Source: Escherichia virus TH15
Length of the DNA stretch: 64,000 bases
Sequence record: MT446392.1
Reading direction: 5' to 3' (one strand)
Notes under the pieces: generated by a model
The model's input: only the letters and a program-made list of their open reading frames with translations
Told to the model about the DNA's origin: nothing
Database searches by the model: none
Translations under genes and position numbers: made by a program
In this document: piece after piece, positions 9,035 to 9,725 of the stretch
Layout of the letters: the number at the start of each line of letters is the position of its first letter
Numbering within the stretch: position 1 is the first letter of the stretch

Positions 9035-9270
9035 TGTCTGAACAAACTATTGAACAAAAACTGCAGTCTGAAATCGTTATCCTTAAATCCCGTATTCTGG
9101 ACACTCAAGACCAGGCTGGCCGCATTAAAGCTGAATCTGACCAGTTTGTTAATGCGCTTGGTCAGATTGCCCAACTGGTTGGCGTGACTGGTGAAACTGT
9201 TAAACTGGAAGATGTTATCCAGGCGGTTGCTGATAAAATTGCCCCGGCTCCTGCGCCTGACGAAGAATAA
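9034..9270 (+). CDS. 57A: tail fibre assembly chaperone gp57A
   Basis: 78-aa coiled-coil protein [10 protein letters not shown]... (T4 gp57A 79 aa); conserved position. Confidence 0.8.
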
Positions 9271-9725
9271 TGACATTAAATGAAGTCTCTGAAGGACTTT
9301 ATGTTGCAGCCAAATTTTCAGAATTAACTCTTGACGCGCTGGAAAATCTTCAGCGCTCTCTTAAGGTACCTAATCCCGTTCCTCGTGAAAAATTCCATTC
9401 CACTATTTGTTATTCCAGAGTAAATATTCCATATGTTGTTGCCTCTGGCAGTTTCGAAGTAGCCAACTCTGGTCACCTGGAAGTATGGAAAACTGACGAC
9501 GGGAGCACCCTGGTTCTTGTACTGGATTCAGATTATCTTAGTTGCAGACATATGTATGCACGAGCCATTGGCGCAACACATGATTTCCCGGACTACACTC
9601 CTCACATAACATTATCTTATAATGTTGGTCCTTTGACGTATAAAGGAGAAGTTCAGATTCCGGTTGTTTTAGACCGTGAATATAAAGAACCGCTAAAATT
9701 AAATTGGTCGGCGGATTTAAAGTAG
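9270..9725 (+). CDS. 57B: 2H phosphoesterase, gp57B / Acb1-like (anti-CBASS cyclic-nucleotide phosphodiesterase family)
   Basis: 151 aa; two H-x-T/S motifs (FHSTICYS and TPHITLSY); same size and position as T4 57B. Confidence 0.65.

Follow-up and report, generated by a model that had tools for sequence, protein, structure and literature searches.

The 57B homologue of Escherichia virus TH15 as a predicted Acb1-type anti-CBASS phosphoesterase

Anti-CBASS proteins of described phages

The product of T4 gene 57B (NP_049750.1) was found by activity-guided fractionation to degrade 3'3'-cGAMP and was named Acb1 (Hobbs et al. 2022, PMC9117128), as had been stated in a sequence-only reading of the DNA considered here, where T4 57B was taken as the prototype of this enzyme type. 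Structures of Acb1 from Erwinia phage FBB1 revealed a 2H phosphoesterase fold with a catalytic tetrad made up of two HxT motifs (H44, T46, H113 and T115) (PMC9117128). The bases of the Acb1 ligand are stacked on by Y12, W74, F107 and W147, adenine N6 is read by E141, and residues 145-152 constitute a C-terminal lid (PMC9117128). T4 Acb1 was reported to cleave adenosine-containing 3'-5' cyclic di- and trinucleotides, for example 3'3'-cGAMP, cUA or cAAA, though not cGG, cA4 or 3'2'-cGAMP, and an H44A/H113A mutant was inactive (PMC9117128). Only the T4 enzyme and nine further homologues that were cloned have been shown to perform this hydrolysis. A T4 mutant lacking acb1 suffers a >300-fold defect on CBASS hosts (PMC9117128). 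Poxvirus poxins also degrade a cyclic-dinucleotide immune signal, yet are structurally distinct from Acb1 according to the same authors (PMC9117128).

A second T4 protein, Vs.4, is a cGAMP sponge that was later named Acb2, and in which the F82C change reduces nucleotide binding. Both proteins are in turn monitored by Panoptes guard systems, which fire when decoy nucleotides are removed by Acb2 (type I) or by Acb1 (type II); type I Panoptes senses Acb2, and type II senses the degradation of cA3 by Acb1.

Identity and functional residues of the 57B homologue

The window analysed here is a 64,000-nucleotide stretch of the Escherichia virus TH15 record MT446392.1. The gene at the 57B position (9270..9725, + strand) extends from an ATG to a TAG stop codon (9723-9725) and encodes a protein of 151 aa. 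A Pfam search matched this protein to PF23474 (Anti-CBASS protein Acb1) with 200.6 bits (E 1.2e-59) against a cut-off of 27 bits, this being the sole Pfam family above threshold, and profile positions 1-143 of 144 were aligned to residues 8-148, i.e. essentially end to end. Among all PDB sequences, the best match was FBB1 Acb1 (7T26/7T27; E 7.3e-63, residues 9-147), and alignment with T4 57B, as taken from NC_000866, revealed 83% identity over the full length. These matches corroborate the earlier proposal that the open reading frame at this position encodes an Acb1-type 2H phosphoesterase. An NCBIfam search returned no Acb1 or Acb2 match, that library being without these phage families. Taken on its sequence, 9270..9725 very probably encodes a functional orthologue of T4 Acb1 (gp57B), which is a 2H phosphoesterase of small size that requires no metal.

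Exactly two H-x-[TS] motifs were detected when the translated sequence was searched with a regular expression. The first (H43-S44-T45, equivalent to H44/T46 of T4) is encoded at 9396..9404 (+) by the codons cat-tcc-act and lies within FHSTICYS, which begins at residue 42; the second (H112-I113-T114, equivalent to H113/T115 of T4) is encoded at 9603..9611 (+) by cac-ata-aca and lies within TPHITLSY, which begins at residue 110. Both motifs had been recognized from the sequence with a spacing of about 80 residues; the pair stands, but the histidines are 69 residues apart, an error without consequence. In an alignment of eight homologues sharing 38-83% identity (the window protein, T4, FBB1, RB16 and Proteus, Acinetobacter, Aeromonas and Vibrio phages), H43, T45, H112 and T114 as well as Y11 were invariant. 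The invariance of the tetrad in these eight homologues, together with the match of the entire protein to the Acb1 profile, shows that the HxT motifs are not a chance occurrence.

Every functional residue named in the literature was found to be retained in the alignment with T4 Acb1, from which the window protein differs by a one-residue N-terminal offset and 26 substitutions, none of them at a named functional position. The tetrad H43, T45, H112 and T114 aligned with H44, T46, H113 and T115 of T4, the base-stacking residues Y11, W73, F106 and W146 are identical to T4 Y12, W74, F107 and W147, and E140 is identical to the adenine-N6 contact E141. The C-terminal lid is likewise identical and is represented by the segment LNWSADLK.

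FBB1 Acb1, which was crystallized in its apo form (7T26) and with 3'3'-cGAMP (7T27), is 70% identical to the window protein over residues 9-147 with no large gaps, indicative of a shared 2H fold and active-site geometry. It differs in carrying F in place of W73 (W74 of T4) and a one-residue insertion after residue 79. An AlphaFold2 model generated from the single window sequence was unusable (mean pLDDT 37, pTM 0.30), and the fold was for this reason assigned by alignment to crystal structure 7T26; at 70% identity to the FBB1 structure, the window Acb1 is predicted to fold as a compact 2H phosphoesterase bearing a C-terminal lid.

Proteins identical (100%) to the window Acb1 are encoded by 57B of Escherichia phage vB_EcoM_VR7 and by Escherichia phage EAWsc9, where XLZ23998 is already annotated as 'anti-CBASS protein Acb1'. 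The genes of both phages differ from acb1 of the window by synonymous changes only (approximately six in the case of VR7) and reside in the same surrounding gene order, while the window genome as a whole is ~93-97% identical to phages of Gaprivervirus, the genus of VR7 and EAWsc9, with indels elsewhere. The gene is thus an ordinary and already characterized one, given that an identical protein bears the name Acb1 in a publicly available genome, and its protein sequence shows no departure from the known family. The significance of its identification is little beyond correct annotation, although the assignment helps to replace the misleading labels 'RNA ligase' and 'hypothetical protein' that most database homologues still bear.

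A tblastn search with the window Acb1 detected homologues in 1478 phage records, in 1302 of which the match extended over 80% or more of its length. At the margins of the family, RB16-type phages, together with related Klebsiella and Cronobacter phages, encode a longer 57B homologue (173 aa) that aligns only over residues 6-118, retaining both HxT motifs but with a C-terminus without the lid tryptophan W147; this subgroup may close its pocket differently. The weakest tblastn match was located in Pseudomonas phage psageK9 (NC_074661.1 42770-43090; 29% identity, E 2e-6, query residues 37-130) and falls in the C-terminal part of a hypothetical protein of ~600 aa, which may thus combine a 2H domain resembling Acb1 with a larger polypeptide.

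By analogy with the T4 and FBB1 enzymes, we infer the enzyme activity, substrate range, timing and anti-CBASS benefit of the window Acb1. The protein would be made during infection and would bind 3'-5' cyclic di- and trinucleotides with at least one adenosine, such as 3'3'-cGAMP, cUA, cAAA and cAAG. The ligand would be held in a U-shaped pocket closed by the C-terminal lid, with the aromatic residues stacking against the bases and the glutamate reading adenine N6. The enzyme is expected to strain the adenosine such that its 2'-OH attacks the scissile 3'-5' phosphate, the two HxT motifs providing acid-base, metal-independent catalysis in two steps, via a cyclic-phosphate intermediate to a linear product with a 3'-phosphate. 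Removal of the signal would leave CBASS effectors without activation, and the infected cell would not commit suicide before the phage cycle is completed. In view of the 26 residue differences from T4, the range of substrates might deviate in its details from that of the T4 enzyme.

Conservation of acb1 and alternative readings

The acb1 gene is intact and under purifying selection. Its dN/dS was 0.07 in comparison with T4 and 0.12 in comparison with Proteus phage PM2, these ratios being approximate as dS against T4 is saturated, and no non-synonymous changes were present relative to VR7. When the neighbourhood (4018-11973 of the window) was compared with the corresponding stretch of ~10 kb in T4, acb1 was the most conserved gene, with 83% amino acid identity, whereas values of 48-72% were obtained for the ten remaining genes of the T4 stretch that possess a homologue in the window. 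The latter include gp1 (48%), gp3 (51%), 57A and trna.3 (both 55%), gp4 (64%), gp53, gp5 and trna.4 (66-67%) and gp2 (72%), so that virion as well as nucleotide-metabolism genes are among the less conserved neighbours; T4 trna.2 has no homologue in the window. Synonymous divergence from T4 was tested for gene 1, 57A and acb1 and proved equally saturated in all three. We read this mildly unexpected conservation as strong constraint on an enzyme that is small and presents mostly binding pocket at its surface. As acb1, an accessory anti-defence gene, is more tightly conserved than core genes, it could be constrained by an additional role besides CBASS evasion, although we consider this improbable; if true, such a role might lie in clearing multiple adenosine-containing signals, whether of the host or decoys, or in acting on a phage-made nucleotide.

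The same unusual conservation relative to the neighbouring genes would fit a broad or multiple role, and counts in favour of the proposal that the gene product belongs to the Acb1 family but has been selected mainly for a function other than CBASS evasion, acting instead with a shifted substrate range on other adenosine signals, for example the cA3 of type III CRISPR or those of other cyclic-nucleotide systems. Hobbs et al. noted that cleavage of cAAA by Acb1 could also counter type III CRISPR (PMC9117128), and Acb1 degrades cA3, which serves type II Panoptes as its decoy. Set against these points, no phenotype other than CBASS evasion has been demonstrated for the T4 orthologue, and the window protein agrees with that of T4 at all residues known to determine specificity. 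The closest relatives, moreover, infect E. coli and Shigella, in which type III CRISPR is uncommon. A main role other than CBASS evasion is accordingly regarded as very improbable.

The name 'RNA ligase', which is attached to many GenBank and RefSeq homologues, T4 57B in NC_000866 included, and to the best PHROG match of the window Acb1 (PHROG 755, E 3.3e-65), would place 9270..9725 among LigT-like 2'-5' RNA ligases or 2',3'-cyclic phosphodiesterases acting on RNA ends, for example in tRNA repair. LigT enzymes share the 2H fold, the two HxT/S motifs and their chemistry with Acb1, but the faint match to the Pfam LigT-type family (2_5_RNA_ligase2, PF13563; 11.9 bits, E 0.24) is far under the 27-bit cut-off and spans only residues 91-121, i.e. 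~30 residues at the second HxT motif, compared with 200.6 bits end to end for the Acb1 model. With all residues for stacking against and reading the cGAMP bases retained, and with a name that is older than the experiments by which T4 57B was assigned as a nuclease of cyclic oligonucleotides, this reading is extremely unlikely, and 'RNA ligase' is a legacy label from the 2H superfamily.

Genomic setting and a second anti-CBASS gene

The Acb1 assignment is also in keeping with the position of the gene. Upstream synteny is anchored by gene 1 (8357..9034, +), which encodes a dNMP kinase (Pfam DNMK, E 5e-77), followed by 57A (9034..9270, +), which encodes the tail-fibre chaperone (Pfam GP57, E 3.8e-25). 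The TAA stop codon of 57A (9268-9270) overlaps the ATG of acb1 (9270-9272) by one base (TAATG), as compared with four bases in T4, and this overlap makes translational coupling of the two genes probable. The order of gene 1, 57A, 57B and internal-protein genes corresponds to 1-57A-57B-ipI of T4, and the position of acb1 behind these two upstream genes is conserved in T4, VR7 and EAWsc9 as well as in Acinetobacter, Aeromonas and Vibrio phages.

Where T4 carries ipI downstream of 57B, the window carries five unrelated internal-protein-like open reading frames (9786..10118, 10127..10399, 10408..10707, 10763..11041 and 11097..11351, all +; block 9786..11351). Three of the five match PHROG families labelled 'internal head protein' or 'internal virion protein', and all five possess capsid-targeting N-termini of the MKTYQEF type and homology to VR7 ip9, ip6 and their neighbours. 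The gene 1 and 57A neighbours and these five reading frames uphold the prior placement of the gene at the 57B position, directly upstream of an internal-protein block. The additional suggestion that this stretch is an anti-defence region holds for acb1, in that the acb1/ipI adjacency of T4 has already been described as an anti-defence island (PMC9117128); for the remainder of the stretch it is conjecture, none of the five reading frames being a detectable IPI homologue. No homologue of T4 ipI was detected in the window at E 1e-3, and T4 IPI is the only such internal protein with a shown anti-restriction role, so that its anti-GmrSD function is not transferable to the five local reading frames.

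The fifth of these (11097-11351, +) is 45% identical to VR7 ip6 in the same slot, the other four being 98-100% identical to their VR7 counterparts, while the block of EAWsc9 differs in the fourth slot instead. Such slot differences among close relatives indicate that the internal-protein block is a swapping site.

An intergenic cassette directly follows the acb1 stop codon (9724..9770, +) and consists of GTGTACA followed by a stem (GTGTAGG/CCTACAC) around TATTAT. Near-identical cassettes were observed at 9724-9770, 10706-10750, 11040-11085 and 11351-11395, one being located ahead of each internal-protein-like reading frame after acb1, and similar cassette motifs start at 13798, 19727, 25905, 33145, 33733, 41590 and 61903. 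Their form is GTGTACA...GGGATA..TATAAT..TATCCCATCAAC...GGAG..ATG, with an early-promoter-like hexamer pair of which the -10 element is in the loop of the stem. These elements resemble PeSLs (promoter-early stem-loops), the shuffling cassettes of T4-type phages that were described previously (PMC2839356, PMC4122927). The acb1 gene is thus situated exactly at the edge of the cassette-delimited, variable internal-protein block, the start of which is marked by the 9724..9770 cassette.

The hairpin past the acb1 stop codon was only marginally more stable than shuffled sequences (-15.9 kcal/mol, z -1.95), and a consensus scan returned a promoter-like match at 9726-9754; we read this hairpin as part of the PeSL-like cassette rather than as a regulatory element of acb1. 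Around acb1, promoter-like sites in the consensus scan (20 versus 14.0 ± 3.3 in shuffles) and terminator-like sites (6 versus 3.6 ± 2.0 in shuffles) were both close to expectation. The consensus scans yielded weak sites only, one of which, within gene 1 at 8816, is TATAAATA and resembles a late promoter; this motif is not enriched in the window (6 occurrences versus 5.1 by chance). As these counts are near chance, no expression signal or dedicated promoter can be assigned to acb1.

The interval 24772..25904, just upstream of regB, was shown to hold homologues of vs.7, vs.5, vs.4 and vs.3. The vs.4 homologue, here designated acb2 (25336..25599, +; two genes upstream of regB), encodes a protein of 87 aa that matches the Pfam Acb2/Tad1 hairpin family (PF24729; E 6.2e-18, 65.2 bits against a cut-off of 27) and, over its full length, the crystal structure of the T4 Vs.4 hexamer (PDB 7UQ2; E 5.4e-31). 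The guess that an Acb2-type sponge might be found among the small reading frames of this interval was thereby borne out. The protein is 66% identical to T4 Vs.4 and identical to VR7 Vs.4, its F81 corresponds to the retained F82 of T4, and the gene occupies the same vs.5-vs.4-vs.3-regB slot as in T4. The N- and C-terminal thirds are nearly identical to those of T4 Vs.4, whereas the central stretch (residues ~37-68) is heavily substituted. From these comparisons, the 25336..25599 product is predicted to be an Acb2-type cyclic-nucleotide sponge, and its gene the second anti-CBASS gene of the window.

As in T4, the Acb1 nuclease and the Acb2/Vs.4 sponge encoded 16 kb away would represent degrading and sequestering counter-measures, respectively. 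A Gaprivervirus-type phage with this two-part anti-CBASS kit of T4 is predicted to be resistant to many CBASS systems, while carriage of acb1 and acb2 also predicts sensitivity to Panoptes, so that both proteins can be liabilities. These predictions are useful for choosing or engineering therapeutic phages.

A second internal-protein-like cluster (23473-24065, +) was observed between denV and vs.8, with N-termini MKTYQEFITE and MLTYQEFITE at starts 23473 and 23766, respectively, the reading frame at 23766 being 100% identical to VR7 ip7. This cluster lies ~1.3 kb upstream of acb2, and both anti-CBASS genes thus have internal-protein-type genes nearby. Between nudE and the lysozyme gene e, the window furthermore contains a reading frame of 251 aa (21740-22495, +) with HNH and NUMOD3 motifs (NUMOD3, E 2.2e-13), which probably encodes a homing endonuclease. 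In VR7 and EAWsc9, nudE directly adjoins e, and the 21740-22495 reading frame looks like a lineage-specific insertion.
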